64,000 nt of DNA. Origin: Shigella phage ESh21. Shown here one piece after another: positions 1 to 43,962 of this stretch. How positions within the stretch are numbered: the first letter of the stretch is position 1; the number at the start of each line of letters is the position of its first letter. The notes below the pieces were generated by a model that ran no database searches, was not told the origin of the DNA, and saw only the letters and a list, made by a program, of their open reading frames with translations. The stretch is taken from sequence record ON528731. One strand, given 5' to 3'. The position numbers and the translations under genes were made by a program.

Positions 1-133
1 ATGATGTTACTTATGAACATGAAAGCCGTGAAGATAAAGACTTGTTTGCACTGTCAATTGACAAAGCTGAAACAATTTATCTTTTTACCTTGACTTTAAA
101 AACATTTGAATATGAAATATATCGGAGCACAAA

Positions 134-271
134 ATGAAACACTCTAAAGCATTTGAAGCAGTATTTGGTGATTCCCTGAAAGCAACTGCTGGTAAGTCTG
201 CTGAACATTACGAAACGAAGCGAGTTCGCACTGGTAAGACTGCTCGTAAAGCTGCCAAGAAAGCTGCTTAA
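134..271 (+). CDS. small basic hypothetical protein (45 aa)
   Basis: ATG at 134 with GGAG about 7 nt upstream; stop TAA 269-271; codon usage like neighbouring genes; below the 60-aa ORF-track cutoff; antisense ORF 77..316 looks low-complexity. Confidence 0.3.
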   Translation: MKHSKAFEAVFGDSLKATAGKSAEHYETKRVRTGKTARKAAKKAA

Positions 272-358
272 AATGTTTGACATGGGGGTATGAAGCATGT
301 AAGATTGTACTCCCAATAAGATTTGAATTGATAGTTAATTTGAGAAAGAGGTATTAAA

Positions 359-1207
359 ATGTCTAAAGTTGTTAAAATGAAATCTCCGGTAGAAAAATAC
401 AACGGTAAAGAACTTGAAACTTATCGTTACCTGCTGAAAGATATTTGGTTCTACTACCTGAATACTATTCCACGTCCTCAGAAGGGCAAGTCTGTAGACA
501 AACATTTCCCAGGCAAAGACTGTAATTACAGCGTTTCAATTCTGGCAAAAGACGGTAACAAGCTCTTTAAAGAGTTCACCAAGTCTAAAAAAAATCCAGA
601 TGGTTGGGATAAGGTCACTACAGAGACTGTTGATGCAGATGACTTTGAAGAGAAGTTTGGTTGTGAGCCTCCATTCGAAGCTGACACTTATTACATCCTG
701 AAGGTTAGCCGTTCAGCAGCTTACAAAGATGGTGCTGTATGGTCAGCAAAACAGAGTTTCCCTGTGATGCTGGTTGAAGAACTGAACGGTAAACGTGTTG
801 CGGTTAAGCAACCTATGAAGAAAATTAAGGCAGCAAAATCTGACAAGCATGACGATGACAAGACTTACGATGTTGTCTGTCCAGATATTGCAGTCGGTAA
901 TGGTTCTTTTGGTAGTGTGATTCTTTCGACTCACTTCTACACCTTCGAAGGTAACGTTCTAACTAAGCCAATTCAGGAGCAGTTTATCATTGATACTCTG
1001 GTTCCATACACTGGTGGTACTGGTGGTGCAACCGAGACTGAACTTGATGAAGACGAACTGGCACTGCTTGGTCTCGCAGGTGTTGAAGACAACGGTGAAA
1101 TCTCTGAAGAAGATGCAAAAGATTCTGATGATGATAAAGGTGGTGATGACGATGACGACCTACCAACACCGGATGATGATGATGACGATTTTGATACTGA
1201 AGATTAA
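359..1207 (+). CDS. hypothetical protein with poly-acidic C-terminal tail (possible ssDNA-binding or DNA-mimic protein)
   Basis: 282-aa ORF, RBS GAGAAAGAGG upstream; C-terminus DDDKGGDDDDDLPTPDDDDDDFDTED; sits next to RNase H-like gene. Confidence 0.6.
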   Translation: MSKVVKMKSPVEKYNGKELETYRYLLKDIWFYYLNTIPRPQKGKSVDKHFPGKDCNYSVSILAKDGNKLFKEFTKSKKNPDGWDKVTTETVDADDFEEKFGCEPPFEADTYYILKVSRSAAYKDGAVWSAKQSFPVMLVEELNGKRVAVKQPMKKIKAAKSDKHDDDKTYDVVCPDIAVGNGSFGSVILSTHFYTFEGNVLTKPIQEQFIIDTLVPYTGGTGGATETELDEDELALLGLAGVEDNGEISEEDAKDSDDDKGGDDDDDLPTPDDDDDDFDTED

Positions 1208-1226
1208 TTCTCAGTAGTTACTACAA

Positions 1227-1256
1227 AGCCCTGTACAGAACGTATAGGGCTTTTTC
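1227..1256 (+). terminator. rho-independent terminator
   Basis: hairpin AGCCCT...AGGGCT followed by TTTTT directly after stop of 359..1207. Confidence 0.6.
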
Positions 1257-1269
1257 GTATGGAGGTACA

Positions 1270-2310
1270 ATGAATCAGTATACACTTACAAAGCTCCCAG
1301 AAAGCGTTACACACGTCTTCATTGACGCAGACAGCATTGCTTACAAGGGTGCTTGTGTAGTTGAAAAAGCAAAGTACAAGTATGTGAATAAACTTACCGC
1401 TGAAGAGTCTGATGACTTTGATAGTGCTAAGTTATCTTCACAATGGTTAGCTGACCAGAGAGTTCTTACAGAGGAACTTGGACTTGACTTTGATGAAGAT
1501 GAATGGGAAAGACAGACTTGGAAGGAAGCCAAGAGTGAAAAAGAAGCTATTATGGCGACTCAGCAGGTTCTTCAAGAATGGCTTAAAGTTGTCGGTAAAG
1601 AGCGTCAATGGATGGGTTACCTGACTGAGAAGGGTGTTCACAAACACAAAGACATTAAAGGTCTTGAACATCAATACCAAGGTAACAGGAAAGATGCGGT
1701 GACACCTACGCACCTAGTTGCTTGTCGTGAGTATCTTCTGTCACGACCTGAGTTTAAGCTTCTCAAAGGTGGCTTTGAAGCTGACTCAATCGTTATTGCA
1801 AAAGCTGAAAAGATGGGTAAAAAAGCTGCTCTTATGAGTATTGATAAAGACCTTCGTCAAGCTGAAGGTACATATTGTATTGATATGACTTATGAGAAAG
1901 CACCACTTATCTTTATTGCTGATAATAACGTTGGAGAGATTTGGGATTGCCCTATCAAATCCAAACCAAAAGCTAAGAAGACAGTCGGAGTAGGCTTCAA
2001 ATTCCTCTGCTATCAAGCTGTAGCAGGTGATAATGCAGATAACTACTTTGGCCTTAAGGGTGCTGGTAAAGTTGCTGTAATGAACGCTCTGGAAGGTAAA
2101 ACAACCTACAGAGAATGTTTAGATGCTGTTTATGAGTTGTATGCAAAGAAAGACTCTTACACCTATGTGTCGTGGGACGGTCAAACAATTACCAGAACAC
2201 CTTTAGAGTTAATGCACCAGCACTTCTGGATTGCATACCAAGAGCGAAATCCAAAGGATGATTTCACGTTTGAAAAATATGGATGGGAGCCTACTATGAA
2301 TGAAGATTAA
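1270..2310 (+). CDS. rnh: RNase H / 5'-3' exonuclease (FEN family, T4 rnh-like)
   Basis: N-terminal HVFIDADSIAYKGA, central SIDKDLRQAEG, C-terminal GDNADNYFGLKGAGKVAV H3TH-like motif; pattern matches T4 RNase H (memory-based comparison). Confidence 0.65.
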   Translation: MNQYTLTKLPESVTHVFIDADSIAYKGACVVEKAKYKYVNKLTAEESDDFDSAKLSSQWLADQRVLTEELGLDFDEDEWERQTWKEAKSEKEAIMATQQVLQEWLKVVGKERQWMGYLTEKGVHKHKDIKGLEHQYQGNRKDAVTPTHLVACREYLLSRPEFKLLKGGFEADSIVIAKAEKMGKKAALMSIDKDLRQAEGTYCIDMTYEKAPLIFIADNNVGEIWDCPIKSKPKAKKTVGVGFKFLCYQAVAGDNADNYFGLKGAGKVAVMNALEGKTTYRECLDAVYELYAKKDSYTYVSWDGQTITRTPLELMHQHFWIAYQERNPKDDFTFEKYGWEPTMNED

Positions 2311-2809
2311 AGGTTTCGGTAATTGTCCTGTTTATGGTCATTGGGTATCTTTATGCGGGGAAGTTGACCCCGCTAAACTGTTCGGGTTTGTCTATCTAGT
2401 CTATTGTAAGAAAACTGGACAGTATTACATTGGTAAAAAACAGTTCAATAGTATCACTAAGAAGAAGGTTGCTGGAAAGACCAGACGTAAGGTTGTCACC
2501 AAAGAGAGTGACTGGATGGTTTACCAGACTTCTTCTGAGTACATTAAGAAAGATATTGAAGCTTTTGGTATGAAAGAGTTTGACTTCTACATTGTGCAAA
2601 CCTATTATACACGAGGTGGATTAGTCTACGGAGAAGCAAATCTCCAACATAAGTTCGATGTTATGACAAAAAGGATTGACTCGAAACTCAGACTCTTCTA
2701 CAATGCCAATATTGCAGCTATCAAGTTCCTTACAAAAGAAACTTATGAAGAAGCTGAGAAACGTATTAACAAAATCATGAAGCTTAACGAGAGAGAAAAT
2801 CATGTTTAA
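2300..2809 (+). CDS. GIY-YIG-like nuclease domain protein (DenA/endonuclease II-like)
   Basis: motif FVYLVYCKKTGQYYIGKK resembles GIY-(10-11)-YIG; 11-nt overlap with upstream gene. Confidence 0.45.
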   Translation: MKIKGFGNCPVYGHWVSLCGEVDPAKLFGFVYLVYCKKTGQYYIGKKQFNSITKKKVAGKTRRKVVTKESDWMVYQTSSEYIKKDIEAFGMKEFDFYIVQTYYTRGGLVYGEANLQHKFDVMTKRIDSKLRLFYNANIAAIKFLTKETYEEAEKRINKIMKLNERENHV

Positions 2810-3011
2810 ATCTATCAAGCACGACCATCAAGCTAAAATCGAAGCTGGCTTGGATAATCTGAAGACGGTTATTGCAAAGGCTAAAGAAGCCACTGAAACA
2901 GAGATGGATGCTCTGGAGTCTCAAATTCAGCACCTGATTAACAAACGTGTTGAACTGAAAGCCCGTCTGGATTATATTTTGTCTAAACAGGAATTGTTTC
3001 AGGAGGTTTAA
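2802..3011 (+). CDS. small hypothetical protein (coiled-coil)
   Basis: 69-aa ORF, translationally coupled to neighbours. Confidence 0.45.
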   Translation: MFKSIKHDHQAKIEAGLDNLKTVIAKAKEATETEMDALESQIQHLINKRVELKARLDYILSKQELFQEV

Positions 3012-3766
3012 TGTTTAATTCCAGAGAATCCGTAGTAAATTGGAATCTTCGTTGTGGTAATACTCCAAAGGTTCTATACAGCCCTGAATATTGGGAATCA
3101 CTGAAGAGTCAATCTCTTTGTATGTTGGAAGAAGCTAAAGAGTTAGTGTCAGCAGTTGAAGCAAAAGACCCTGTTGAAACCCTTGATGCTCAGGCTGATT
3201 TGCAGTATGTTTTAGATGGTTTGGTATTCTTGTCACAGCATGACCACGATGGTGCTATGGAAGCTGTTTGCCAGAATAACAACCTGAAATATACAGATAA
3301 CTATCAAGAAGCTGTACAACGTATGTTTGACATTGAGAAACGTACTGGTGATGAATGCTATCTACGCCCGTCAATGGTTGAAGGTAAAGAGTGGTTTGCA
3401 GTAGTACGTAAATCAGATGGTAAGATTATGAAGCAGTCTAATCTCCCAAAAGTTCAGCTTGCAGAGTTTATCGCAGAGGTTGAATCTAAAGAGTTATTCG
3501 TGGTAGTATCTGACACATGTGTTATCTGTCAGGGCTTACTAGGAAGTCTGAGAAGCCTTGGTGTAGATAACTTCACAGAAATTACTCCAATCAGTTCTAA
3601 AGCTGATAGAGATTTCTGTAGAGATAATGACTTGTGGGTTGCAGATATCGTTTACTACGATGGTGAGAAGTTCCATACGACCTCATACCCGAAGTTGAAC
3701 TATGATGCAAATAACCTGAAGAATTGGTTAAAAGGGGTAGGTTATAATGGATTCACAGAACACTAA
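3011..3766 (+). CDS. MazG-like nucleotide pyrophosphohydrolase domain protein
   Basis: LEEAKELVSAVEAKDPVETLDAQADLQYVLDGLVF resembles the MazG EExxE...D helix pair; ATGA overlap with upstream stop. Confidence 0.45.
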   Translation: MFNSRESVVNWNLRCGNTPKVLYSPEYWESLKSQSLCMLEEAKELVSAVEAKDPVETLDAQADLQYVLDGLVFLSQHDHDGAMEAVCQNNNLKYTDNYQEAVQRMFDIEKRTGDECYLRPSMVEGKEWFAVVRKSDGKIMKQSNLPKVQLAEFIAEVESKELFVVVSDTCVICQGLLGSLRSLGVDNFTEITPISSKADRDFCRDNDLWVADIVYYDGEKFHTTSYPKLNYDANNLKNWLKGVGYNGFTEH

Positions 3767-13065: not shown

Positions 13066-13078
13066 AAGTATATGATTA

Positions 13079-13107
13079 GGGAACTGTAAAAGGTTCCCTT
13101 TTTATTT
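13079..13107 (+). terminator. rho-independent terminator
   Basis: GGGAAC-loop-GTTCCC + TTTTTATTTT. Confidence 0.65.
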
Positions 13108-13117: not shown

Positions 13118-13633
13118 ATGTACTACTCAAACCTTAAACGTGCTGCTGCAATGTCTGTTTTACGTCTTGATTTTGATGAACGTCAAGAGTTCATTGAGTC
13201 TCACCAATATGACCCTTCAAACTCTAATCACATGGTTCTTTGGAATCGTGGGAAGTACCGTGATAGTTCCCTCTTTGCATATTACCCTCACTACACTATT
13301 GACAACCTCTATGAGTACTGTGTTGTAAAGAACACTATAGCTACCCTTAATAAGCTTTGTAGATATTCTGGAAAGAAAGCTTTCACGTTAGGCCACCATA
13401 AGCCCGTGACAAAAGGTGGAGAGCACCATTGCTCGAACTGGTTTATCCAGACTAAAGAAGATAACCAGAAGCAAGGAGAGAAGCTTCCAGAAGCTCCTAA
13501 GATGACTTGGGAAGAACAGGAAGCATATCTTATAAATAATATGCCACCAATGCTTGACAGGGAATATGCAGTTCTGGCAATATCTCTCTTGTTGAAGTTC
13601 GAGACTGTTTATGAGGCGACTTATAATGGCTAG
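13118..13633 (+). CDS. hypothetical protein with HNH-like (His-Me finger) motif
   Basis: GHHKPVTKGGEHHCSNWFIQTKEDN resembles HNH HH..P..GG...N core. Confidence 0.4.
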   Translation: MYYSNLKRAAAMSVLRLDFDERQEFIESHQYDPSNSNHMVLWNRGKYRDSSLFAYYPHYTIDNLYEYCVVKNTIATLNKLCRYSGKKAFTLGHHKPVTKGGEHHCSNWFIQTKEDNQKQGEKLPEAPKMTWEEQEAYLINNMPPMLDREYAVLAISLLLKFETVYEATYNG

Positions 13634-13904
13634 AGAACAATGGGAAATCAAAGAACTTATTAGTGAAGGTGGTAACGGTTGTGAAATGTACATGATACGT
13701 GGTCACGTTCCAAATGCCCTTGCACTTGAGATGGTAGACCATCAATCTAATGGCTACTACAAAGAGTTTGGAGAGCCAAACATTGAACGCACTTGGACAA
13801 AACCAGTTCCAGATGGTACAGGTAACTGTTCAGTGATTTATCATACTGTAGACCCAAAGAAATGCAAAACAGCTATGGCTGTAACCTTTGTAACTTTTGA
13901 TTGA
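13611..13904 (+). CDS. hypothetical protein
   Basis: 97-aa ORF overlapping upstream stop. Confidence 0.4.
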   Translation: MRRLIMAREQWEIKELISEGGNGCEMYMIRGHVPNALALEMVDHQSNGYYKEFGEPNIERTWTKPVPDGTGNCSVIYHTVDPKKCKTAMAVTFVTFD

Positions 13905-13916
13905 GAGATATTAAAT

Positions 13917-14798
13917 ATGAAAACTATTATTAGTGTACTGTTACACTCACGTAAAAAAGGTGCTCACCAAGAAGAGTTCAACATTATCCAGTTTCCGTCT
14001 GGAGAAATTGGTGGTAACTTCTCAGAAGACCTAGTAGCCTATGCTGAACAGAATGCTTCCCAGATTGAGAATGTAATCCTCACTGTACAGGGTTACGACA
14101 AAGATACTCTGTTTGCTTTAGCTCTGGCGAAAGAAGCTATTGACAAACTAATTCCTCAGAAATCAACTATGAAGACTGCTGTATTTGGCTTCTTACCAAA
14201 TGCTCGTTATGACCGTCACATGTTTAAAGGTGATGCAGCAGCATTGAAAGTCTTTGCAAATCTGGTAAATGCTATGGAGTTTGATGCAGTATGTGCTTTA
14301 GATACTCACAGCAACGTAGCAGAGAACTTGTTTAAGTGCTTCCATAACCTGCCCCAGAAAGAAGCAGCAGTACACTTTGCAAGTGACCCACGTATTGATT
14401 TCTTAGTGGCTCCAGATGCAGGTGCAGCCAAGAAGACTGAAGAGGCTGCTAAAGAGGTTGATAAGCCATATATCACAATGGCTAAGATTCGTAATCTGAA
14501 AACTGGTGAAATCACTGGTATGCGAATCCTTGATGATGTAGACTTAACTGGTAAAGCTGTCATGATTCTCGATGATATCTGTGATGGTGGTCGTACCTTT
14601 GTAGAAGCTGCAAAACATCTTCGTGAAGCTGGTGCAAGCCGTGTAGAACTTTATGTAACTCATGGGATTTTCTCAAAAGGTGTTGAAAATCTTCTTGACA
14701 ATGGCATTGACCATATCTACACTACAAACTCGCTAGGGGATGCTGAAGACCGTGGTCTGAATCAGTTCTCACAAGTAACTGTAGCAAACATTGAGTAA
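13917..14798 (+). CDS. prs: ribose-phosphate pyrophosphokinase (PRPP synthetase)
   Basis: 293 aa; PRPP-binding loop VMILDDICDGGRT resembles the DD(I/L)xDTGGT motif. Confidence 0.8.
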   Translation: MKTIISVLLHSRKKGAHQEEFNIIQFPSGEIGGNFSEDLVAYAEQNASQIENVILTVQGYDKDTLFALALAKEAIDKLIPQKSTMKTAVFGFLPNARYDRHMFKGDAAALKVFANLVNAMEFDAVCALDTHSNVAENLFKCFHNLPQKEAAVHFASDPRIDFLVAPDAGAAKKTEEAAKEVDKPYITMAKIRNLKTGEITGMRILDDVDLTGKAVMILDDICDGGRTFVEAAKHLREAGASRVELYVTHGIFSKGVENLLDNGIDHIYTTNSLGDAEDRGLNQFSQVTVANIE

Positions 14799-14846
14799 TA
14801 AACTTTGAAGGGGCTGAAAAGCCCCACTATTGAGAGAGATAAAATT

Positions 14847-16673
14847 ATGTCTAAATCAGTTTATGCAGTACCAGCAGGTCTTAATGCGGATGCTTACAAA
14901 GCTGGCCATATCTACCAGTACCCAAGTGCTACACAGTATCTGATGCTAAATCTTACACCTCGTGGTGATAAGTGGTTTAACACTCCACTTGATATTGACG
15001 GTGTAGTTGCTTTTGGTATTCAACGTTTCGTTAAAGATTACTTAGTAGACCACTGGAATGCTACCTTCTTTGAACGAGATAAGAAAGAAGTTGTTGACGA
15101 AATCTTAGAAATCATGAACGGTGTTCTCGGTGCAGATGCGATTGGTCGTGAGCATTGGGAAGAACTTCACGATTTAGGCTATCTGCCAGTCGAAGTCTAC
15201 TCTGTAGAAGAGGGTACAGTGGTTCCAATGCGTGTTCCAATGATTATCTTCAAGAATACTGTAGAGGGCTTCCATTGGGTAGCTGGATATCTGGAAGATG
15301 CTTTCTCTGCTGAAATTTGGAAAGCTTCTACGATTGCCACTATTGCATTACACTACAAACGCATCTGTAAGCAATGGGCTGATGTAACCTGTGATAATGA
15401 CTTCCATTTACCTTGGCAGTGTCATGATTTTGCAATGCGTGGTATGTCAGGCTTTACAGATGATGCTTTTAACGCTGTAGGTCACCTGACAAGCTTTAAA
15501 GGTACTGACAGCTTCCCTGCTGTCTACACTGCTAAACGTGCTTATGGTCAGTTTATGGAAGTAAGTGATATCGGCAACTCTGTACCAGCTACTGAACACT
15601 CTGTGATGTGCGCAAACATTTCATGGAATATGAAAGACTTGTCAGAGGAAGATATTCATTCACAGTACATCATGCAGTCTGATAGCTTGCTGGATGCAAA
15701 ACGTTGGCGTGGTGAGGTTAAAACCTTTGAGCATTTACTGGTAGACGTATATCCAACTGGTATTGCAAGTGTTGTTTCAGATACTTACAACTTCTGGCGT
15801 ACTGTTACAGAGATTCTCCCAGAACTCCGTGAAGTTATCCTGAAGCGTGAAGGTAAACTGGTAATACGTCCAGACTCTGGAGACCCCATTCACATTGTTG
15901 CTGGTTATCGTGCTGTTGAGTGGGAAAATGCCAAGAGTATGTTCTACAAACATATGAAAGAAATTGCACCGAACAATGATAAACTCCTGAATCTTATTCA
16001 GTATTGTGAGTTGCAGGATATGGGTTATGGGTTTGCTGCATGGCTTATCTCTGAAGGTTATGAGTTAGTTGTTGATAAAGAAGATTTTGAAACTGCTGAA
16101 ACAGTTAACTTGAAAGATTTTAATAAGACCGGAAATATTGTTGTTAAGCGTATGCTGACAGCAGAGATTGATGGGGCTATCCCAACTCTCTACAACATCT
16201 TTGGTGGTCGTGTGAACAGTAAAGGTTACAAAGTACTGGATGAGCACATCGGTTTAATCTATGGTGATTCTATCACCCTTGAGCGAGCTAATGAGATTCT
16301 TGGTCGTCTTGCTGACAAAGGTTTTGCAAGCTCTAACGTGGTCTTTGGTGTTGGTTCATACACTTACCAGTACCTGACTCGTGATACCTTTGCATTTGCT
16401 GTCAAGGCTACTCTTGCTCAGATGGACGGTGAAGAAATCATGCTGGCAAAAGACCCTAAAACTGACAGTGGTCTTAAGAAGTCTGCTTTTGGTGGTGTAG
16501 TTCCTATGTGTGACGGTGATAAACTGGAAGCTGTAGACGGCTTTGGCTTTGCAGAGTTTGAAGGTGTACTGGATAATCCAGAATGTGCTTTGAAGTTGGT
16601 GTTTAGCAACTCTCAACCATATGGTTATGTAAACCTTCGTGATGTTCGAAATAACATTGACAAACAACTCTAA
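14847..16673 (+). CDS. nadV: nicotinamide phosphoribosyltransferase (NAMPT/NadV)
   Basis: motif VIRPDSGDP characteristic of NAMPT/NAPRT type II PRTases; start 14847 after GAGAGAG preferred over 14805; C-terminal extension relative to typical NAMPT. Confidence 0.8.
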   Translation: MSKSVYAVPAGLNADAYKAGHIYQYPSATQYLMLNLTPRGDKWFNTPLDIDGVVAFGIQRFVKDYLVDHWNATFFERDKKEVVDEILEIMNGVLGADAIGREHWEELHDLGYLPVEVYSVEEGTVVPMRVPMIIFKNTVEGFHWVAGYLEDAFSAEIWKASTIATIALHYKRICKQWADVTCDNDFHLPWQCHDFAMRGMSGFTDDAFNAVGHLTSFKGTDSFPAVYTAKRAYGQFMEVSDIGNSVPATEHSVMCANISWNMKDLSEEDIHSQYIMQSDSLLDAKRWRGEVKTFEHLLVDVYPTGIASVVSDTYNFWRTVTEILPELREVILKREGKLVIRPDSGDPIHIVAGYRAVEWENAKSMFYKHMKEIAPNNDKLLNLIQYCELQDMGYGFAAWLISEGYELVVDKEDFETAETVNLKDFNKTGNIVVKRMLTAEIDGAIPTLYNIFGGRVNSKGYKVLDEHIGLIYGDSITLERANEILGRLADKGFASSNVVFGVGSYTYQYLTRDTFAFAVKATLAQMDGEEIMLAKDPKTDSGLKKSAFGGVVPMCDGDKLEAVDGFGFAEFEGVLDNPECALKLVFSNSQPYGYVNLRDVRNNIDKQL

Positions 16674-16687
16674 CTGAGTATTATAAG

Positions 16688-16710
16688 AGGCTCCTACGGG
16701 AGCCTTTTTA
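16688..16710 (+). terminator. rho-independent terminator
   Basis: AGGCTCC-TACG-GGAGCCT + TTTTT. Confidence 0.7.
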
Positions 16711-20913: not shown

Positions 20914-21486
20914 ATGTTTAACAAAATAGGAGACCCAATGAAGAAATTCATTTTAGGTTTGTGCTTATTATTAACAGCACATGTTGCTACAGCGTCAGAT
21001 TGTCCAGAACTAACAATTAGCCAGAAAGTTAACATGTTAAAGGCTTACAATTATGGCGAGAAAGAGATGGGACAAGGTTGGGGAATCCCATTAGCAGCTA
21101 TAGCCTTACAAGAGTCACAATTAGGTGTCAAGGTTGTTAATAAAAAGACTCACGATTATGGAGTGTTCCAGAATCATTTGAAGACTGTTGTAAAGCGTAA
21201 CAAGATTTCACCTAACGTTGCAAAGAGAAAGCTTATCAGTGATTTCCATTACTCAGCTAAAGAGGCTCACAAGGAACTTCTTTTCTGGACAAATGTACAT
21301 GGTCACCCAAATGGAAAGTATTCTATGAAGCGTGTCTTAGCATCTTATAATGCTGGTTACAAATATAAGATTCCAAAGGCTAGACAATACTCTCAAGACG
21401 TGTACAATAACATGCAACTGCTTGCTCAATGTGAGTTTGCAACAAACATTAAAAAGGTAAAATATGAGCGAATCAAAACAATTTGA
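20914..21486 (+). CDS. secreted protein with lytic transglycosylase (SLT)-like motif
   Basis: N-terminal signal peptide MKKFILGLCLLLTAHVATA; ALQESQLG...DYGVFQN resembles the SLT catalytic E-S ... GLMQ region. Confidence 0.4.
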   Translation: MFNKIGDPMKKFILGLCLLLTAHVATASDCPELTISQKVNMLKAYNYGEKEMGQGWGIPLAAIALQESQLGVKVVNKKTHDYGVFQNHLKTVVKRNKISPNVAKRKLISDFHYSAKEAHKELLFWTNVHGHPNGKYSMKRVLASYNAGYKYKIPKARQYSQDVYNNMQLLAQCEFATNIKKVKYERIKTI

Positions 21487-22159
21487 TAAGGTGCTGTGTC
21501 ATGCTTATGATATCAAACCTTTGGATTTAGATATCAGTTCTGCAAGCTGGTCAGAAACTGTTAAAGCTGACTTTGCAGATACAGCAAGATATGTTGTGTG
21601 TCGTTTTGAAGATTTTCACTCAACGATGACAAAGATTCCTTGTCAAGATTTGCTAACTGGTAAGACTGTGTATGTAAATCGTAACAGCCTCATCTTAGTT
21701 GCAAAAGACTTAGAAGCAAAACGTAAAATGGTTCTGGCAGATATTGACGGAGTTCTTACAAGCTTTGACAAAAGTCTTAATGCAACCTTGTTAGATGATG
21801 GTACTTACTCACAGTACACAAACTTGGTAGACTCTCACAGGGCTAAACCAACTTATGTTTTTAACATCCTATGTGGAATCTCACAGAATGCTGATATAGG
21901 ATTCTTAACTGCTCGTGGTGAATCACAAAGAGTGGTTACACATCTCTTCCTGAATGAGAACACAGACAGTGACTTCCTACTATTTATGCGTGGATTCGGT
22001 GACAATGAGATTAGTGCAGAAAGTTTGAAAGTTCGTATGCTTCAGTCTTGCATTCTACCTTACTATGATGTAGTATGCTTTATAGAAGATACAGTAAAGA
22101 ACGTGGCAAAGGTCGAAAGAATCCTTCCACACATTAAAACAATGTTAGTTAAAAACTGA
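21464..22159 (+). CDS. hypothetical protein with HAD-like DxDG motif
   Basis: VLADIDGVLTSFD resembles HAD phosphatase motif I. Confidence 0.4.
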   Translation: MSESKQFDKVLCHAYDIKPLDLDISSASWSETVKADFADTARYVVCRFEDFHSTMTKIPCQDLLTGKTVYVNRNSLILVAKDLEAKRKMVLADIDGVLTSFDKSLNATLLDDGTYSQYTNLVDSHRAKPTYVFNILCGISQNADIGFLTARGESQRVVTHLFLNENTDSDFLLFMRGFGDNEISAESLKVRMLQSCILPYYDVVCFIEDTVKNVAKVERILPHIKTMLVKN

Positions 22160-24370: not shown

Positions 24371-25165
24371 ATGGGCATTGTAAAAATCATTAAAGGTGAT
24401 ATCTTTGAAGCCTTTGATAACCAGAAGTTTGATATCATTGGTCACGGATGCAACTGCATGAACTTGATGGGTGCAGGTATTGCAGCAACAATCTCAAAAC
24501 GCTACCCAAAAGCTTATGAGACTGACGCTGAAGTTTATGAGACAGTTGGTGGTGAGAACCATAAACCTGTACATCTTATGCTTGGCAATATCTCTGTAGC
24601 ACGTTTCAAGCAGGGTCGAATTGCTAACCTATACACTCAGGTTATCACTGGTAAAGATGCACGTTACAATGCCTTAGAAGCAGCTTTGCAGCGTCTTAAC
24701 AACTACTGCAAAGTAAACCAGCTTAAGAAGGTTGGTCTTCCAATGATTTGTGCAGGGATTGGTGGTCTGGATATCTTTGCAGTTACTTCAATCATTAACC
24801 AGACAATGAAAGATGTAGACGTTTACCTTTATGTCTATGAAGAAACAATGCACAGACGACTAACCAATAACATAGTTGGTTGGAACAACTACAGTGAACC
24901 TCAACACTTTGATGGTGTCGCAGTTGTGAAGGATAATCAAGTTACACTACGGGTAAAACGGAAGGGTAAGGTGCATAAAAGTAACCCTCCGGTTGAGAAG
25001 TACTCTCTGAGTAACGCTCAAGTTACCCACCCGTTACATGACCACTGTTTGAGAGCAGTAACATTTGGTGACAATGCAAGTGTTTACCTTCTTGCACAAG
25101 ACCATGAAGAAGCTGATAAGATTATCTCTGATAAACGTTTTAGCTTTGTTGAAGCACGTAACTAA
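24371..25165 (+). CDS. macro domain protein (ADP-ribose binding/hydrolase-like)
   Basis: IKGDIFE...DIIGHGCNCMNLMGAGIAATISKRYP and GLPMICAGIGGLD follow the macro-domain GD(I/V)T, N-x6-GGGV, G-x-P-x-I-S-x-G pattern (compared from memory with E. coli YmdB). Confidence 0.55.
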   Translation: MGIVKIIKGDIFEAFDNQKFDIIGHGCNCMNLMGAGIAATISKRYPKAYETDAEVYETVGGENHKPVHLMLGNISVARFKQGRIANLYTQVITGKDARYNALEAALQRLNNYCKVNQLKKVGLPMICAGIGGLDIFAVTSIINQTMKDVDVYLYVYEETMHRRLTNNIVGWNNYSEPQHFDGVAVVKDNQVTLRVKRKGKVHKSNPPVEKYSLSNAQVTHPLHDHCLRAVTFGDNASVYLLAQDHEEADKIISDKRFSFVEARN

Positions 25166-35796: not shown

Positions 35797-36011
35797 TGTT
35801 CAATCCTCTTTAATCGTGCATTCCACTCTCTGTCAATCATTCTCTGGAATGTCTTACCTCTGGGAGTAACGTTCTTAAGTGATTCTTCAGTACATACTAA
35901 GATATCACCTCTGGCAAACTTGCCATAACACTGTTTAATCTTCTTGGCTCGTCTGTACTGCTCAGAAATAGAGAGCGTCCAGTATTCGCCTAGAGTTGTA
36001 AACTTTTTCAT
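35793..36011 (-). CDS. small hypothetical protein
   Basis: 72-aa ORF, ATGA coupling. Confidence 0.4.
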   Translation of the reverse strand: MKKFTTLGEYWTLSISEQYRRAKKIKQCYGKFARGDILVCTEESLKNVTPRGKTFQRMIDREWNARLKRIEQ

Positions 36012-36757
36012 TCTGTCACCATTGCGTTGTAGAATTGCCTTTGAATCTCTTCAGCAATCTGATAAGGTGTGAAACCAGCTTTTAACATCATCCTGACTGT
36101 GTACTCAATGTCATTCTTATTAACCACATGGTCTGTGACACTGATTGCTTCTTTTAACTCTTCCACATTCTTTTTAGCATCTTCACAAGTGCTGGTCAAC
36201 ATGGAGTCAAATTTCTTTTGTGGTGTAGTCCAAGCATGGCTATGTGGATTTGCATCACAGAAATACTTGAAGTAATCTCTGACATTATCTACAACCAGAG
36301 TTTGATGACCGACTTCTTTAGTTGTGTATCGAGACTCTTGCTCAGGTAAATCTGCAAGTCTGTGTGTAGGAGCCTCAATAGTAACATCAATCGCTCTAAC
36401 CTTTGGAGTTACCTCTTTCTTCAGAGTCGGAGTTGCCTCAAAAGTTGCCTTTTCAGACTCTTCATAATCTTCATCTTTAACAATCCCAGTATCTACCAAA
36501 GCAATACCAAGGAGGTCTCTAAAGCTTCCTGTGAATACCAGATTTTCTATATCAGCAGTTGAATAAACTTTACCAGCCCACAAATGTCCTTCTGCAAGGT
36601 TTTGAGAATCTGGGTACAGCTTGAAGTGTATATTTTTCAAAGGTCTGAAGTACACCACACCACTATCAGAGACATGCGTGACCGTAGCTGCAACTCTACG
36701 CAATGGGTTTTCCTTGACATATATAAAAATTGTGTCTGATTCTTTAACTTTGTTCAT
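36008..36757 (-). CDS. hypothetical protein
   Basis: 249-aa ORF. Confidence 0.5.
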   Translation of the reverse strand: MNKVKESDTIFIYVKENPLRRVAATVTHVSDSGVVYFRPLKNIHFKLYPDSQNLAEGHLWAGKVYSTADIENLVFTGSFRDLLGIALVDTGIVKDEDYEESEKATFEATPTLKKEVTPKVRAIDVTIEAPTHRLADLPEQESRYTTKEVGHQTLVVDNVRDYFKYFCDANPHSHAWTTPQKKFDSMLTSTCEDAKKNVEELKEAISVTDHVVNKNDIEYTVRMMLKAGFTPYQIAEEIQRQFYNAMVTE

Positions 36758-36827
36758 TTTATCTCTCCAATAAAAAAGGGAACCACCTTTCGATAGCTCC
36801 CATCATACAAAATTCTATATATTACTG

Positions 36828-37421
36828 TCAAGCATATCTTTTAGGCAGTAGTGTACTTTTTCTGCTTCGAACATCTTCAAGGATAGATATAAAGTCATCA
36901 GAAGCACCCTTCCAAGGGCTGAAGTTTGGGATGTGTTGACGAATAGCTTCAATAATCGTCTTCATACCTGTGTTCTTCATCCACCAATCTGAACTTGAGG
37001 CAGTCATAACAAAGAACTGCTCATCATCTGTTAAGATGACCTCTTTAGTGAATGGAGAAGTGTACGTAGTGATAATAGAACCACCATTCATATAATATGT
37101 ACGCTTGTGAACTTTATCAAGCATATCATGCAGGTCACCAAACAGTTTCACAACCTCTTGGTGGTTAATGTCTTTCTCAAGGTCTAAACGGTACTTCAGA
37201 AGTGCTTCATCAACTTCTTTAGATGAGAACTTAAAGTACTGCACATCTTCAATGATACATGCAGAGATGTTGTTCACATCCATAGTCAATTTGGCAATTT
37301 TTGCTGGTGAGTTAATGTTTGGCTGGAACGCAGCAAGCACACCCTGAACATTGCCGTAGTGTTGAACTAATGCAACTTGTGGAGAGTCAACTCCACCATT
37401 TTCTTTAATGTTTACACTCAT
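36828..37421 (-). CDS. hypothetical protein
   Basis: 197-aa ORF. Confidence 0.5.
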   Translation of the reverse strand: MSVNIKENGGVDSPQVALVQHYGNVQGVLAAFQPNINSPAKIAKLTMDVNNISACIIEDVQYFKFSSKEVDEALLKYRLDLEKDINHQEVVKLFGDLHDMLDKVHKRTYYMNGGSIITTYTSPFTKEVILTDDEQFFVMTASSSDWWMKNTGMKTIIEAIRQHIPNFSPWKGASDDFISILEDVRSRKSTLLPKRYA

Positions 37422-37422
37422 A

Positions 37423-37773
37423 CTATAGCTTCCTCACTAAATACTTTTTAAGTGGTGTCTTCGGTTTTTCAAAGACCTCAATAGAATTTATTTTAATACC
37501 CTCACCACGCATACCTGTGGATTGGTAGATATAGAACTCAAGCATCCCTATACTCTTAGCTGGCATATCATGCTTAACAAAAATGGTCACTGATTCTTTA
37601 CTTTTCAGTATTACTGTACCATCTTTATACACAAGCTTATCAGGTTGTTTATAGTCAAGCATGTCGAACATCAGAAATAATCTTTGCTGACACATATCAA
37701 GTCTTGATGATAGGGATTCTTGTATATCTGCGAAATTCTTATAAACAACTATGTGGAGCTTAAGCATCTGCAT
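37423..37773 (-). CDS. hypothetical protein
   Basis: 116-aa ORF. Confidence 0.45.
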   Translation of the reverse strand: MQMLKLHIVVYKNFADIQESLSSRLDMCQQRLFLMFDMLDYKQPDKLVYKDGTVILKSKESVTIFVKHDMPAKSIGMLEFYIYQSTGMRGEGIKINSIEVFEKPKTPLKKYLVRKL

Positions 37774-38053
37774 ATTCTCTGACGAAGAAGTAGTTGATTT
37801 TGTTATCAGATATCATAAGGTCATAGCAAGTAATCTCAAACTTACTCTTTTCAGCATCATAGCTTGTGTATGGCTCAGAAACTTGCTTTGTTGATACCTT
37901 CGGGTTATTAGGGTTTAAAAGGCCACCATAAAGTTTCTTAATGGCCTTTGTTACTACACCCCAGATAACATCATCAGTCAGTTCTTCGTACAGGTCAAAA
38001 TCAGCTTCATAGCTGAAGTCATTAATTGGAAAGATAACCTGTACTCTACTCAT
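37760..38053 (-). CDS. hypothetical protein
   Basis: 97-aa ORF. Confidence 0.45.
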   Translation of the reverse strand: MSRVQVIFPINDFSYEADFDLYEELTDDVIWGVVTKAIKKLYGGLLNPNNPKVSTKQVSEPYTSYDAEKSKFEITCYDLMISDNKINYFFVREYADA

Positions 38054-38054
38054 A

Positions 38055-38435
38055 TCAGATTACCTGTGTCACTTGCAGCGCTTCTGTTATAGAAATATCA
38101 CCAACTTTCTCTTCTTTGATAAAGGTGAAGGTTAGTAAGGTATCTTGCAGTTCTTCTTCAAGTGGTACTCCGTTCAGTTCATCATAGATAGATTGGGTAG
38201 TCCAGCCTTCCTGACCATCTGGGTAGTAAATGGCATATTTCGGGAAGTCAATACCACACCAACCAAAGACAGGACAACCATCTTCATCGTTATATCGGTG
38301 ATGTAGGACACTACCACTTTTCACAAAACGAAGTCGCAACTCACCGTTATGTTGGTACACAACTGCATTTGCTTCTTGCTCACCCATGTTTCCATGAGCA
38401 GAAACGTCAACAATTACTGGAATCTCTTTATTCAT
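38055..38435 (-). CDS. hypothetical protein
   Basis: start moved to ATG 38435 (MNKEIPVIVD) giving ATGAATAA overlap with upstream stop. Confidence 0.45.
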   Translation of the reverse strand: MNKEIPVIVDVSAHGNMGEQEANAVVYQHNGELRLRFVKSGSVLHHRYNDEDGCPVFGWCGIDFPKYAIYYPDGQEGWTTQSIYDELNGVPLEEELQDTLLTFTFIKEEKVGDISITEALQVTQVI

Positions 38436-38826
38436 AATAACCTCTCTCAGCTTTCTCAATCTTATCCAGAAGTTTATTGCACTGGTCGTTGTGGTAAATA
38501 GCCTCACGATTGTGCATTGCTTTCTGTTTCTCAAGTAGAGTTTTATAGTAACCTGATAACTGTGCTCTTGTCAAGGGGTGTTCTGAAATAATATCTAAAG
38601 AACTTTCACCGAGAGAGCAGAAAAGGCCATCATCGTTCACGTCATAAAGTTCGTTTGTGTAGAACCCTTTGTTAGCCATTGTGATAGGTGAACGCTCAAC
38701 GACCTCGACAATAAACTTGGTGACAACCTTACCTCCGTAAGTGATAAGTTTGCTTCCATAGACTCTGACCTTCATACCGCTTCTTGTGTACTTAAAAGTA
38801 CCAACATCATCAGCCCAAAGTTTCAT
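38428..38826 (-). CDS. hypothetical protein
   Basis: 132-aa ORF. Confidence 0.45.
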   Translation of the reverse strand: MKLWADDVGTFKYTRSGMKVRVYGSKLITYGGKVVTKFIVEVVERSPITMANKGFYTNELYDVNDDGLFCSLGESSLDIISEHPLTRAQLSGYYKTLLEKQKAMHNREAIYHNDQCNKLLDKIEKAERGYYE

Positions 38827-38841
38827 AGTTTTCTCCTAGAT

Positions 38842-38867
38842 ATAAAAAAGGCTCCCGAAGGAGCCTA
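38842..38867 (-). terminator. rho-independent terminator (minus strand)
   Basis: AGGCTCC-CGAA-GGAGCCT hairpin with T-run on minus strand, downstream of endolysin. Confidence 0.6.
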
Positions 38868-38875
38868 TGAATATA

Positions 38876-39340
38876 TTACTTTGGATATACCGCGTCAAGA
38901 TAAATCTTCGCTTCCATTCTACGTCTGTTTGTCAGACCTTTAGAAGCAACTTTCTTACCGTTGATGGTTACCTTATTCCACCACTGCATAGCTTCTGCAC
39001 AGCCAACTTTGTTACCAGCATTGTGACGCCTCATGAAGGTTGATTCCTTCATAGCCCCAATACCGATGTTGTAGGTTTCAATAACCAGTGCGTCAAATTC
39101 ATTCTGGGTAGTTGGAGCACTGATAGCTTTGTTCACAGCTACTACAAACTTCTCAACATCAGCAAGTAGATAACTGTTAGCTTGGGCTTCATTGATTTTC
39201 ATACCCATCTTGACAGGTTGACCATTGATACGGATTGTACCATAACCAATTGTAGGAATACCAGCAGAGTCTTTGTAGGCTTCTAAACGAAGCCCCTCAA
39301 AGAACTTGATAGCTTCCAATCCTTGAGGGGATAATTGCAT
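38876..39340 (-). CDS. endolysin (phage lysozyme, GH24-like)
   Basis: GLEAIKFFEGLRLEAYKDSAGIPTIGYG matches the lysozyme E...D...T catalytic region. Confidence 0.8.
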   Translation of the reverse strand: MQLSPQGLEAIKFFEGLRLEAYKDSAGIPTIGYGTIRINGQPVKMGMKINEAQANSYLLADVEKFVVAVNKAISAPTTQNEFDALVIETYNIGIGAMKESTFMRRHNAGNKVGCAEAMQWWNKVTINGKKVASKGLTNRRRMEAKIYLDAVYPK

Positions 39341-39342
39341 TT

Positions 39343-40227
39343 TTAACCTCCTACTACGTTAACCACTACAGTAGCTGGGTTTGAAGTAACACTTCCACCT
39401 GCTCCAGTAACTACACATACATAACTTCCTGCATCACCAGCAGTCGTAGTATTCTCTTTGGTGTAGGTTGCTGCTGTAGCACCAGAGATTTCTACATTAT
39501 CTTTCTTCCACTGGTAACCTGTAGCTCCGGTTGCAACAATATCAAGAGTCAGTGTGTCACCTTCAGTGATTTCTTGGTTTGCTGGCTGTTTAGTGATTAC
39601 TGGAAGTGCATTCACAGTAACTGTTGCAGCATCTGAAGTGACAGTTGCACCACCATCACCAGTAACTACACAGGTGTAAGACCCAGCATCAGCAGGGGTT
39701 ACGTTTGTTTTAGTGTATGTTGCAGAAGTTGCACCAGAGATGTTAGAAGCACCCTTCTTCCACTGGTAACCAGTTGCATTTGTAGCAACAACTGTCAAGG
39801 TTAGAGTACCACCCTCATTAACAGTTTGGTTAGTTGGCTGCGTGGTGATAGCTGGTGGCACAACTGCATCAATCAGTTTAGCATTCAGCATTGAGAAAGG
39901 TTTAACCCTTGCAAGCCATTCACAGTAAATAGTGTCAACATCTTTACCGTTGATGATTGCATACTGCAAATCCATGAAGAAGTCAGCAGTTCTCATTTGA
40001 GCACCTACAGAGTATAGTAGTTCTTCAGAGAATGGAACTGTGTAGCTTGGGGTGTAGTTTAAATCGGTAACCTCAGCAATGTCTGACTCAGGCCACGGAG
40101 AGCTATATGTCAGTGGTAGCACAGCTTCTTGATACGTTCTGAAGTCGTATCTCTTACCAGCTTTAACATTCGCAATAAAAACCTTTACGAACTCTTTAAA
40201 ATCTGGATATGTTTTTGCTTTAATCAT
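39343..40227 (-). CDS. protein with N-terminal paralog domain and two C-terminal Ig-like repeats
   Basis: two 80-aa repeats (TLTLTVVATNATGYQWKK...SYTCVVTG and TLTLDIVATGATGYQWKK...SYVCVVTG); N-terminal 120 aa paralogous to 40224..40592. Confidence 0.55.
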   Translation of the reverse strand: MIKAKTYPDFKEFVKVFIANVKAGKRYDFRTYQEAVLPLTYSSPWPESDIAEVTDLNYTPSYTVPFSEELLYSVGAQMRTADFFMDLQYAIINGKDVDTIYCEWLARVKPFSMLNAKLIDAVVPPAITTQPTNQTVNEGGTLTLTVVATNATGYQWKKGASNISGATSATYTKTNVTPADAGSYTCVVTGDGGATVTSDAATVTVNALPVITKQPANQEITEGDTLTLDIVATGATGYQWKKDNVEISGATAATYTKENTTTAGDAGSYVCVVTGAGGSVTSNPATVVVNVVGG

Positions 40228-40592
40228 TTATTAGCCTCTAATCTTGCGTTTAGTCTGAAATAACCTTTGTGTTGAGGTGATACATCACCAACTACAACAC
40301 CTTCAATCTTATAACCCTTTCCCATTACATACTGAATGTCCATTAAGAATGTCCCTAGACCAACAATATGAAACATCGGATAAAGTAACTCTTCAGAATC
40401 TGGTAGGTCAGTTTTTGGGATGTATTTAACGGTAGCTGTAGTTGGGTTGATATCCTTCTCAGGCCATTTACTATCACGCCATGTTAAGGGTGTCGGAAGT
40501 ACATCATCAAGATTATACCTTTCACCTTCTTGAACACTTTGGACATAAGATTGTAGGAAGCAATAAAAGTCTTTTCTACTCTTTGCCTTCAT
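40224..40592 (-). CDS. paralog of N-terminal domain of 39343..40227
   Basis: shared motifs SEELLY, FxMDxQY, LNAxL. Confidence 0.5.
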   Translation of the reverse strand: MKAKSRKDFYCFLQSYVQSVQEGERYNLDDVLPTPLTWRDSKWPEKDINPTTATVKYIPKTDLPDSEELLYPMFHIVGLGTFLMDIQYVMGKGYKIEGVVVGDVSPQHKGYFRLNARLEANK

Positions 40593-40607
40593 TATCTTTC
40601 CTTAACA

Positions 40608-40630
40608 AATAAAAAGGGGCTTTCGCCCCA
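40608..40630 (-). terminator. hairpin terminator (bidirectional-looking)
   Basis: GGGGC-TTTC-GCCCC flanked by A/T runs. Confidence 0.5.
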
Positions 40631-40635
40631 AAAAC

Positions 40636-41226
40636 TTAAGCCATCGTCTTAAGCATATTTTTAAGTTTTTTGAGATTCATTGTCTCGTCCAACTTAAATC
40701 CAAACCCATTGACGTAATCAATGAAATCAGATTTCTTACTCAGAGATAAAGCATATGACATATCAAAGTCATTACTTGGGGTTGATTCTGGTGAAGTGTT
40801 CACATCAAAAGAAATCTCTGTAGCAATGCTTTCACGCTCTCTCATATTATCAATAAGATTACATGTGTAGTTTGCTGGATAGAATGATGTTGAGCCAGAT
40901 ACATAACTATACTTTGAGTTATGGATGAGGTTAGAGAACACTTTGAAGAATGTCTCTGAATCGTGGCATACAAGCTTAAATTCACTATTAGCACCAAGAG
41001 CCATTAATGAATATGGGCTTTCACCATCAATTGTGTAGTCTGGATTTCTGGATTGTACAGTCACGCGCATAAGGTTGTTTGAAATAGTCTTCTGCTTAAA
41101 TGAGTTTGGAACATAGTGCATACCTCTTTCACACTGATTGACCAATTCTTTTAGAAGGTCATCAGAATACGGTGAAGTAATTGATACAGAACCATCACCG
41201 TTGTAATTAAAACTTACGTTTAACAT
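40636..41226 (-). CDS. hypothetical protein
   Basis: 196-aa ORF. Confidence 0.5.
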   Translation of the reverse strand: MLNVSFNYNGDGSVSITSPYSDDLLKELVNQCERGMHYVPNSFKQKTISNNLMRVTVQSRNPDYTIDGESPYSLMALGANSEFKLVCHDSETFFKVFSNLIHNSKYSYVSGSTSFYPANYTCNLIDNMRERESIATEISFDVNTSPESTPSNDFDMSYALSLSKKSDFIDYVNGFGFKLDETMNLKKLKNMLKTMA

Positions 41227-41453
41227 TTACCTGTTCTCCTACGGTTAATAATCTTGCTGCAATAGAGAAATGAAGCAAATTCACTGGAAGAAACCATTAA
41301 CACTTGTTCACTAGATTGAGCGATAGCTCTGAAATACATACCAGTTAAAGCATCATAGTGCTTATTCTTACCAATCGAAGCTATATACCCATGACTCTTT
41401 GCAGTTTGGTACAAATCAATAATATCTGTGATTTCTAATTGGGAGCTACACAT
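41220..41453 (-). CDS. hypothetical protein
   Basis: 77-aa ORF. Confidence 0.4.
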   Translation of the reverse strand: MCSSQLEITDIIDLYQTAKSHGYIASIGKNKHYDALTGMYFRAIAQSSEQVLMVSSSEFASFLYCSKIINRRRTGKC

Positions 41454-41596
41454 AAGTAATCCTCTTGTCGTCTATAATTTTGAAAATATAGGTACAAACC
41501 AATTTCAGAGGATGTATAGTGGATTGCTTCCACACGTTTTGATTCCTTACAGTGATTGGTATTATTACCTTTTTTCTTCTTTGTTAGTTTTCTCAT
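41436..41596 (-). CDS. small basic protein (53 aa)
   Basis: strong RBS AAGGAGA upstream of ATG at 41596 (minus); below cutoff; first gene of minus-strand block. Confidence 0.3.
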
Positions 41597-43713: not shown

Positions 43714-43731
43714 AAAGTTTTAAAAAGGGTA

Positions 43732-43955: not shown

Positions 43956-43962
43956 AATTAAT

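Follow-up and report, generated by a model that had tools for sequence, protein, structure and literature searches.

Layout and relatives of the adps-namat operon

The window analyzed here is a 64,000-nucleotide stretch of Shigella phage ESh21 (ON528731), and it carries two adjacent genes in the same orientation, one for a protein with a PRPP synthetase (PRPS)-like fold and one for a protein with a nicotinamide phosphoribosyltransferase (NAMPT)-like fold, which we name adps and namat after their orthologs in Escherichia phage Bas63 (Table 1). A sequence-only reading of this DNA had described two neighboring genes with the motifs DDICDGGRT and RPDSGDP, and both are present on the + strand; its assignment of the PRPS-like and NAMPT-like fold families is likewise borne out by family matches far beyond chance (phrog_619, E 7e-98; phrog_448, E 1e-195; NF006629, 461 bits). 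The short spacer and the similar ribosome-binding sites (RBSs) fit the layout of a single unit, as does the terminator that immediately follows namat. A start codon at TTG 14805, which gives a namat ORF of 622 aa, was considered and rejected in favor of ATG 14847, which is preceded by an RBS and matches the start in ESh22 and Bas63, where the annotated length is 608 aa; the first 14 residues of the longer ORF are an ORF-calling artefact. Namat residues are nevertheless given below in the 622-aa numbering.

Table 1. Coordinates of the operon, its signals, the diagnostic motifs of the two proteins and the distant Macro gene (positions in the window)
Feature	Position	Strand	Remarks
adps RBS GAGAGA	13903-13908	+	
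adps	13917..14798	+	ORF A; predicted PRPS-like ADP-ribose pyrophosphate synthetase, 293 aa
Adps Lys190 codon	14484..14486	+	catalytic beta-hairpin lysine; aligns with ICP1 Lys185, SPbetaL1 Lys162, human PRPS1 Lys194
Adps PP loop DDICDGGRT	14571..14597	+	residues 219-227
adps stop, two TAA in tandem	14796-14801	+	
Intercistronic spacer adps/namat	14799..14846	+	48 nt
Spacer hairpin GGGGCT-GAAA-AGCCCC	14810-14825	+	kept in Bas63 despite differing flanks
namat RBS GAGAGAGA	14832-14839	+	upstream of ATG 14847
namat	14847..16673	+	ORF B; predicted NAMPT-like nicotinamide ADP-ribose transferase, 608 aa
Namat selectivity-clamp loop (SCL) TPRGDKWF	14955..14978	+	third residue after TPR Lys, fourth Trp
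Namat insertion 1, ~32 aa	15618..15713	+	residues 272-303 (622-aa numbering); helical, lower model confidence, variable length
Namat catalytic-core strand RPDSGDP	15867..15887	+	Arg355/Asp357 (622-aa) = Arg341/Asp343 (608-aa); aligns with SPbetaL1 Arg306/Asp308
Namat insertion 2, ~88 aa	15909..16172	+	residues 369-456 (622-aa numbering) = 355-442 (608-aa); compact alpha/beta mini-domain
Namat selectivity-clamp helix (SCH) GSYTYQYLTRD	16353..16385	+	SPbetaL1 Namat: GSFTYQYNTRD
Intrinsic terminator 3' of namat	16685..16708	+	10-bp stem then T-run; conserved in Bas63
Poa1p/Adpp-like Macro-domain protein	24371-25165		7.7 kb downstream of the operon, >10 genes away

The operon region is 100% identical to that of Shigella phage ESh22 (Ounavirinae, Mooglevirus). 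Adps shares 82% identity with Bas63 gp79 Adps in a gap-free alignment, Namat shares 74% with Bas63 gp80 Namat, and the synteny from nrdG to rIIA/rIIB is identical in Bas63. In GenBank, over 200 genomes of related phages still carry these genes under the names PRPP synthetase and NAMPT. The operon follows immediately on the ribonucleotide reductase genes nrdA, nrdB, nrdD and nrdG in a part of the genome devoted to nucleotide metabolism, and this position would suit a role in nucleotide supply, where the PRPS-like enzyme raises PRPP for phage nucleotide synthesis and the NAMPT-like gene is only loosely coupled to it. We find this scarcely credible, given that the pairing of the two genes is tight and conserved (97% of Adps-clade genes neighbor a Namat), that they are separated by only 48 nt and share a terminator, and that both the residue-level features of Adps and the Bas63 phenotype, discussed below, speak against it.

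Family placement and diagnostic residues of the two enzymes

Adps is 37% identical (E 2e-35) to the Adps of ICP1, which has been characterized by structure and biochemistry, and 32% identical to that of SPbetaL1; among PDB entries, no canonical PRPS does better than E 9e-18. It scores far below every NCBIfam PRPS equivalog and PRK cut-off (e.g. 97 bits vs 297), and the only model that passes is the broad TIGR01251 subfamily (127 vs a cut-off of 113), whose match extends no further than position 289 of 309. The alignment places the end of the protein ~23 residues before that of E. coli Prs, and the C-terminal alpha11-alpha12 module of PRPS (regulatory, filament) is absent. The catalytic residues, on which the sequence-only reading depended, are present in both proteins, for example Lys190 in Adps; in ICP1 Adps, the K185A substitution abolishes formation of the pyrophosphorylated product of ADP-ribose (ADPR), ADPR-PP (PMC13586617). 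The PP loop, which in Adps holds the ATP-derived pyrophosphate donor, has a DDICDG core that is identical in ICP1 and Pseudomonas phage Adps (alignment A2) and reads DDLCDG in Vibrio phage eugene 12A10, and the loop is unlike the DDMIDTGGT of E. coli Prs. The ADPR acceptor groove is also retained, with Arg97, His131, Asp167, Asp219, Asp220 and Asp223 corresponding to ICP1 Arg87, His121, Asp161, Asp212, Asp213 and Asp216. As for the aromatic contacts to the adenine of ADPR, Phe26 corresponds to ICP1 Phe18, and ICP1 Phe92 aligns with Met102, to which Phe103 is adjacent.

The catalytic core of Namat is intact (Asp29, Tyr31, Phe209, Arg212, Asp235, Ala262, His265, Arg355 and Asp357); in SPbetaL1 Namat, activity is abolished by either R306A or R306G. 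Both elements of the Namat-specific adenine clamp are present. In the SCL, the third residue is Arg, Lys or Tyr, and with Lys or Tyr in this position the fourth stacks; the loop found here is of the Bas63 type, where stacking on adenine falls to the fourth residue. The SCH carries aromatics that are absent from true Nampts (GAQTYQRNTRD in HdNadV and GGALLQKVDRD in Xcc Nampt), although its third small residue is Leu in place of the usual Asn or Val. An AlphaFold2 model of Namat (pLDDT 92.4) finds its best PDB fold matches in SPbetaL1 Namat (9W5X and 9W5W; E 5e-53, target TM 0.94-0.95), which outranks the true Nampts HdNadV and human NAMPT.

The C-terminal extension that had been proposed for the NAMPT-like protein does not exist: profile and PDB alignments leave no more than 3-8 residues uncovered at the C-terminal end, and the protein owes its greater length to a pair of internal insertions together with the 14 residues added by the spurious TTG start. 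Neither SPbetaL1 Namat nor the 495-496-aa forms have insertion 1, which in ESh21 exceeds its Bas63 counterpart by 15 aa. Insertion 2 is confidently predicted by the structure model to be a small domain, for which searches by sequence and by fold found no relatives; SPbetaL1 Namat has a 10-residue loop in its place.

A predicted two-step route to NAD+ and its role against host defense

NAD+ reconstitution pathway 1 (NARP1) was discovered in the Bas63 operon, genes 79-80 (Osterman et al. 2024, bioRxiv 10.1101/2024.02.11.579819), and the tables of that study already hold the ESh22 proteins, Adps as ON528732_00076 in the Adps table and Namat as ON528732_00075, "Adps-associated", in the Namat table, both in the supplement. 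We consider the operon to be the NARP1 of a Moogle-like Ounavirinae phage, with a probability of roughly 0.93. The pathway has been described and the finding is not new; orthology, synteny and the published catalytic and specificity residues are all present in this copy. According to the published scheme, a host defense NADase of the SIR2, TIR or SEFIR type would cleave NAD+ to ADPR and nicotinamide, Adps would transfer the beta-gamma pyrophosphate of ATP to the 1'' hydroxyl of ADPR to give ADPR-PP, and Namat would have nicotinamide replace the pyrophosphate of ADPR-PP to yield NAD+, in two steps in all. PRPP, NMN and NMN adenylyltransferase (NMNAT) would play no part.

The activities and the anti-defense effect of this copy would be those of its orthologs, which have been studied in vivo in Bas63 and in vitro or structurally in SPbetaL1 and ICP1. 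The PRPS-like enzyme, in the form of the SPbetaL1 homolog, has no Prs activity and pyrophosphorylates ADPR, and the NAMPT-like enzyme converts ADPR-PP and nicotinamide directly to NAD+ (Osterman et al. 2024). The full conversion of ADPR, ATP and nicotinamide to NAD+ via ADPR-PP has been demonstrated with the enzymes of SPbetaL1, ICP1, DyoEdafos and P. foliorum alone. Bas63 without genes 79-80 becomes sensitive to SIR2-HerA, and the protection given by its operon persists in a host without pncC and nadR (Osterman et al. 2024). For Bas63, published work already compares wild-type and deletion phage on a SIR2 host and includes NAD+ measurements. Judging from this deletion phenotype, the sequence-only reading was probably right to propose a counter to NAD+-depleting immunity. 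The chemistry it gave, from ribose-5-phosphate through PRPP to NMN, is the expectation raised by Pfam, and was tested and rejected on the Bas63 ortholog (Osterman et al. 2024).

That chemistry corresponds to canonical NMN salvage, where a true PRPP synthetase and a true NAMPT produce NMN, and host NadR/PncC or an undetected phage NMNAT completes NAD+. The Pfam, NCBIfam and PHROG names and the GenBank annotation all say PRPS and NAMPT, and SPbetaL1 Namat does keep roughly half of the PRPP-to-NMN activity of human NAMPT in vitro, so that a minor NMN side route may accompany NARP1. As an account of the operon, however, canonical salvage is very unlikely: the Bas63 operon works where pncC and nadR are lacking, the SPbetaL1 homolog acts on ADPR without being a Prs, the PRPS-like ORF fails all PRPS equivalog cut-offs and lacks the C-terminal regulatory/filament module, and the NAMPT-like ORF shows the adenine clamp of Namat, a feature missing in true Nampts. 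The search for a partner gene was performed on the near-identical genome of ESh22. The NMNAT, Nudix, NadR and PnuC families had no match among its 35 unannotated non-structural proteins (119-471 aa), and none is annotated in the ESh22 genome either. The earlier remark that no NMNAT is visible therefore holds as an observation, but not as a gap, since NARP1 rebuilds NAD+ directly from ADPR and nicotinamide and no third enzyme is missing.

A Macro or RyR (RyDEP) gene, as found in DyoEdafos and Vibrio phage Gary, is present neither in the operon nor among its immediate neighbors. Pfam scans located a Poa1p/Adpp-like Macro-domain protein further downstream (Table 1); a simple regex search based on the classical motifs of Macro domains had given no hits. 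The protein is 27% identical (E 2e-15) to Gary Adpp and 36% identical (E 9e-20) to the NARP1-associated Macro protein of Pseudomonas phage PN09, has a C-terminal extension of ~100 aa, and has homologs in T4-like phages as well. In Vibrio phage Gary, NARP1-AP consists of Adps, the Macro phosphatase Adpp and Namat (bioRxiv 10.64898/2026.01.28.702374), and the published search for NARP1-AP covered no more than two genes on each side of NARP1. We tentatively suggest, as an idea we ourselves rate as doubtful, that NARP1 of Ounavirinae has been elaborated twice, by the Namat insertions (the ~88-aa orphan fold and the ~30-aa helical one) and by an unlinked Macro phosphatase. The insertions could provide a function absent in the 491-aa Namat, such as regulation, escape from a host inhibitor, or docking to Adps so that the labile ADPR-PP is channeled, and the Macro protein could convert the ADPR-1''-phosphate made by RES-type NADases to ADPR. 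If this is true, the Macro protein and the operon together would form a dispersed NARP1-AP that the published search overlooked.

Names based on fold are misleading here, as "PRPP synthetase and NAMPT" points to the wrong substrates and makes a third enzyme seem to be missing. Reading the operon as NARP1 predicts instead that the phage resists SIR2, TIR and DSR-type NAD+-depleting defenses, but not the RES type, and such predicted resistance is relevant when choosing therapeutic phages against Shigella or E. coli. Some modest interest attaches to the domain inserted in the Namat of Ounavirinae and to the Adpp-like Macro protein encoded away from the operon.

Comparison with known systems

The closest counterpart is the NARP1 of Bas63 (Escherichia phage JohannRWettstein), which has the same gene order, neighbors, hairpin, terminator, Namat insertions and Lys-Trp SCL. 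It differs in genus (Felixounavirus, vs Mooglevirus here), in the shorter insertion 1 and in the SCH, which has Met where the present protein has Leu. The NARP1 of SPbetaL1 (9W5W, 9W5X; PMC12774641) shares the catalytic core of Namat and the aromatic clamp of the SCH, whereas its Namat, at 491 aa, has neither insertion, Arg40 of its SCL serves directly in place of Lys-Trp, and its Adps loop reads DDLSSFGGT. With ICP1 Adps, known from crystal and cryo-EM structures (PMC13586617), our Adps has in common the acceptor-site residues, the catalytic Lys, the DDICDG loop and the same C-terminal truncation; the differences are at ICP1 Phe92, to which Met102/Phe103 correspond, and in the tail of the PP loop, which is GGRT here and GAAS in ICP1. 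As in the NARP1-AP of Gary, a Poa1p-like Macro protein is encoded in the genome, but in ESh21 its gene lies outside the operon and no Macro gene is found within two genes of NARP1.

More distant systems share folds and parts of the chemistry. NARP2 of Vibrio phage KVP40, made up of a Nampt and a bifunctional Nmnat/Nudix enzyme, resembles the present operon in its NAMPT fold and in the restoration of NAD+ during infection, but it starts from PRPP, passes through NMN and requires Nmnat, whereas the ESh22 scan found no Nmnat and the Namat clamp is present here. E. coli Prs, human PRPS1 and the NAMPTs of human, Xcc and H. ducreyi (NadV) are alike in fold, in the transfer of pyrophosphate from ATP and in the attack of nicotinamide on C1'' of a ribose pyrophosphate. 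In contrast to these canonical enzymes, the acceptor here would be ADPR rather than ribose-5-phosphate and the donor for the second enzyme would be ADPR-PP rather than PRPP, as orthologs indicate; the first enzyme lacks the regulatory elements of PRPS, and the second has gained an adenine clamp.

Gene pair and operon anatomy

The sequence-only reading had placed two adjacent genes here, and ORF calling recovered both in the same orientation (table below), with its two motifs located in the respective proteins, DDICDGGRT as residues 219-227 of the first (nt 14571-14597) and RPDSGDP in the second at nt 15867-15887. Profile searches assign the first protein to Pribosyl_synth/Pribosyltran, TIGR01251, and phrog_619 (E 7e-98) and the second to NAPRTase/NAMPT_N, NF006629 (461 bits), and phrog_448 (E 1e-195), in both cases far beyond chance. 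We call the genes adps and namat, after the enzymes described below. The mechanical start of namat at 14805 is ruled out by a ribosome-binding site, GAGAGAGA, at 14832-14839 upstream of ATG 14847, of like kind to that of adps (GAGAGA, 13903-13908), together with the 608-aa length annotated in related phages, which is what the 14847 start gives.

The adps gene ends in tandem TAA stops and is separated from namat by a 48-nt spacer. The hairpin in this spacer is not followed by a T-run, and its stem is kept in Bas63 despite differing flanks; it may act as an attenuator or influence mRNA stability. The two small ORFs in 13118-13904 may be co-transcribed with the pair, because they lie between the upstream hairpin and adps.

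Features of the adps-namat region and its surroundings (window positions)
Feature	Position	Strand	Remarks
Terminator-like hairpin	13078-13099		upstream of two small conserved ORFs
Small conserved ORF, 171 aa	13118-13633	+	phrog_3500; weak HNH-endonuclease-like matches (E 2e-5); Bas63 orthologue gene 77
Small conserved ORF, about 93-97 aa	13611-13904	+	phrog_4726; Bas63 orthologue gene 78
adps ORF	13917-14798	+	293 aa
Second ORF, mechanical call	14805-16673	+	622 aa
GC-rich hairpin GGGGCT-GAAA-AGCCCC	14810-14825	+	inside adps-namat spacer
Strong terminator	16685-16708		3' of namat; also kept in Bas63
231-aa protein	21464-22159	+	downstream of rIIB; matches phage polynucleotide kinase families (phrog_3970); contains HAD-like DIDGVL motif
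Macro-domain protein, 264 aa	24371-25165	+	PF01661 (30 bits; cut-off 22); phrog_335 'phosphatase'

Chemistry of the pathway

The best explanation of the operon, to which we give a probability of about 0.93, is NAD+ reconstitution pathway 1 (NARP1), from a study by Osterman et al. that reportedly appeared in Nature in 2024. They set out from four BASEL phages in which the gene pair bore these Pfam annotations, and deletion of genes 79-80 from Bas63 (JohannRWettstein, Felixounavirus) led to SIR2-HerA sensitivity and NAD+ collapse (Osterman et al., bioRxiv 10.1101/2024.02.11.579819). Wild-type Bas63 still escapes when the host has neither pncC nor nadR, and therefore NMN is not the product; the PRPS-like enzyme, Adps, showed no Prs activity and pyrophosphorylates ADP-ribose to ADPR-PP, from which the NAMPT-like enzyme, Namat, makes NAD+ with nicotinamide, and this pathway was named NARP1 (bioRxiv 10.1101/2024.02.11.579819).

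The sequence-only reading was largely right in what it observed and half right in how it interpreted this. A role against NAD+-depleting immunity agrees with the phenotype of the orthologous Bas63 deletion, but the proposed conversion of ribose-5-phosphate and nicotinamide to NMN is contradicted by the escape, the lack of Prs activity, and the direct route to NAD+. The C-terminal extension ascribed to the NAMPT also falls, as profile and PDB alignments reach the last few residues and the extra length is internal. These roughly 110 residues form two insertions, 272-303 and 369-456 (622-aa numbering). Every 582-610-aa Namat from Felix O1-, Moogle-, Yersinia-, Pectobacterium-, and SB18-type phages has both, with identity as low as 42%; neither is present in the 494-500-aa forms or in the SPbetaL1 Namat (491 aa). 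As for the remark that no NMN adenylyltransferase (NMNAT) was in view, with its call for a genome-wide partner search, a Pfam scan covering 35 non-structural proteins without annotation (119-471 aa) from the related phage ESh22 gave no match to CTP_transf_like, NUDIX, NadR-type kinase, or PnuC, and no NMNAT, Nudix, NadR, or PnuC is annotated in the ESh22 record. NARP1 needs no NMNAT.

Family-defining residues of Adps and Namat

For Adps, defining features were taken from a 2026 structural paper on the ICP1 enzyme (PMC13586617). Its catalytic Lys185 corresponds to Lys190 in the window protein, and its acceptor residues Arg87, His121, Asp161, Asp212, Asp213, and Asp216 to Arg97, His131, Asp167, Asp219, Asp220, and Asp223. 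Phe18 is retained as Phe26, and Phe92 aligns to Met102, which Phe103 adjoins. The PP loop DDICDG is the same in the aligned ICP1 and Pseudomonas phage Adps and unlike that of E. coli Prs (DDMIDTGGT), and the PRPS C-terminal alpha11-alpha12 module is absent. Validated Adps enzymes match at E 2e-35 (ICP1) and 2e-26 (SPbetaL1), whereas the best PDB PRPS match is weaker (E 9e-18) and the protein lies far below every NCBIfam PRPS equivalog cut-off.

For Namat, the reference was a 2026 structural paper on the SPbetaL1 enzyme (PMC12774641). The Nampt-like core is preserved (Asp29, Tyr31, Phe209, Arg212, Asp235, His265, Arg355, and Asp357), and the selectivity-clamp helix, GSYTYQYLTRD, carries aromatics missing from two true Nampts, HdNadV (GAQTYQRNTRD) and Xcc Nampt (GGALLQKVDRD). 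The clamp loop, TPRGDKW, is of the Bas63 type, where an aromatic residue at the fourth position stacks on adenine. An AlphaFold2 model (pLDDT 92.4) finds its best fold matches in the Namat crystal structures 9W5X and 9W5W (E 5e-53, target TM 0.94-0.95), with HdNadV and human NAMPT ranking below them.

Relation to known NARP1 systems

NARP1-AP adds a third enzyme, Adpp, which lets NARP1 handle RES-type NADases leaving ADPR-1''-phosphate (bioRxiv 10.64898/2026.01.28.702374). The Macro-domain protein has yeast Poa1p, an ADP-ribose 1''-phosphate phosphatase, as its best PDB sequence match, and resembles Adpp of Vibrio phage Gary (27% identity, E 2e-15) and a Macro protein associated with NARP1 in Pseudomonas phage PN09 (36%, E 9e-20). 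It has about 100 additional residues at the C-terminus and is kept in Bas63 (bas63_0095, 'putative phosphatase'). Its gene sits 7.7 kb downstream of namat, beyond the reach of the NARP1-AP study, which searched two genes to either side. We offer a link to NARP1 only as a hypothesis, because homologues occur in 2775 phage records, T4-like phages included.

The NARP1 region is matched by 211 phage records in all; it is 100% identical to that of Shigella phage ESh22 (ON528732.1; Ounavirinae, Mooglevirus), and many Moogle- and Felix O1-like phages match it at 84-89% identity. Among the matches listed, most name the two genes 'ribose-phosphate pyrophosphokinase' and 'nicotinamide phosphoribosyltransferase'. 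Outside this region, identity to ESh22 is 87-99.7% (87-97% in 1-3027 and 26526-45410), and therefore the window derives from a phage very closely related to ESh22, or from a mosaic of it, rather than from ESh22 itself. The window Namat shares 44-46% identity with chromosomal homologues of 495-496 aa from Klebsiella, Kosakonia, Phytobacter, Kluyvera, and Erwinia; the ones that were aligned carry a Namat-type clamp, GVGS[YF]TYQYNTRD, consistent with the bacterial NARP1 homologues of PMC12774641.

Compared with Bas63 (MZ501086.1), Adps is 82% identical to gp79 over 293 aa, gap-free, Namat is 74% identical to gp80, and the gene order is the same (nrdG, two small ORFs, adps, namat, rIIA, rIIB). The ESh22 proteins themselves are in the supplementary tables of Osterman et al. 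(bioRxiv 10.1101/2024.02.11.579819) as ON528732_00076 (Adps) and ON528732_00075 (Namat, 'Adps-associated'). What novelty remains is limited to the uncharacterised insertion domain of Namat and a possible unlinked Adpp; the operon itself is NARP1, a system described before, this very phage included.
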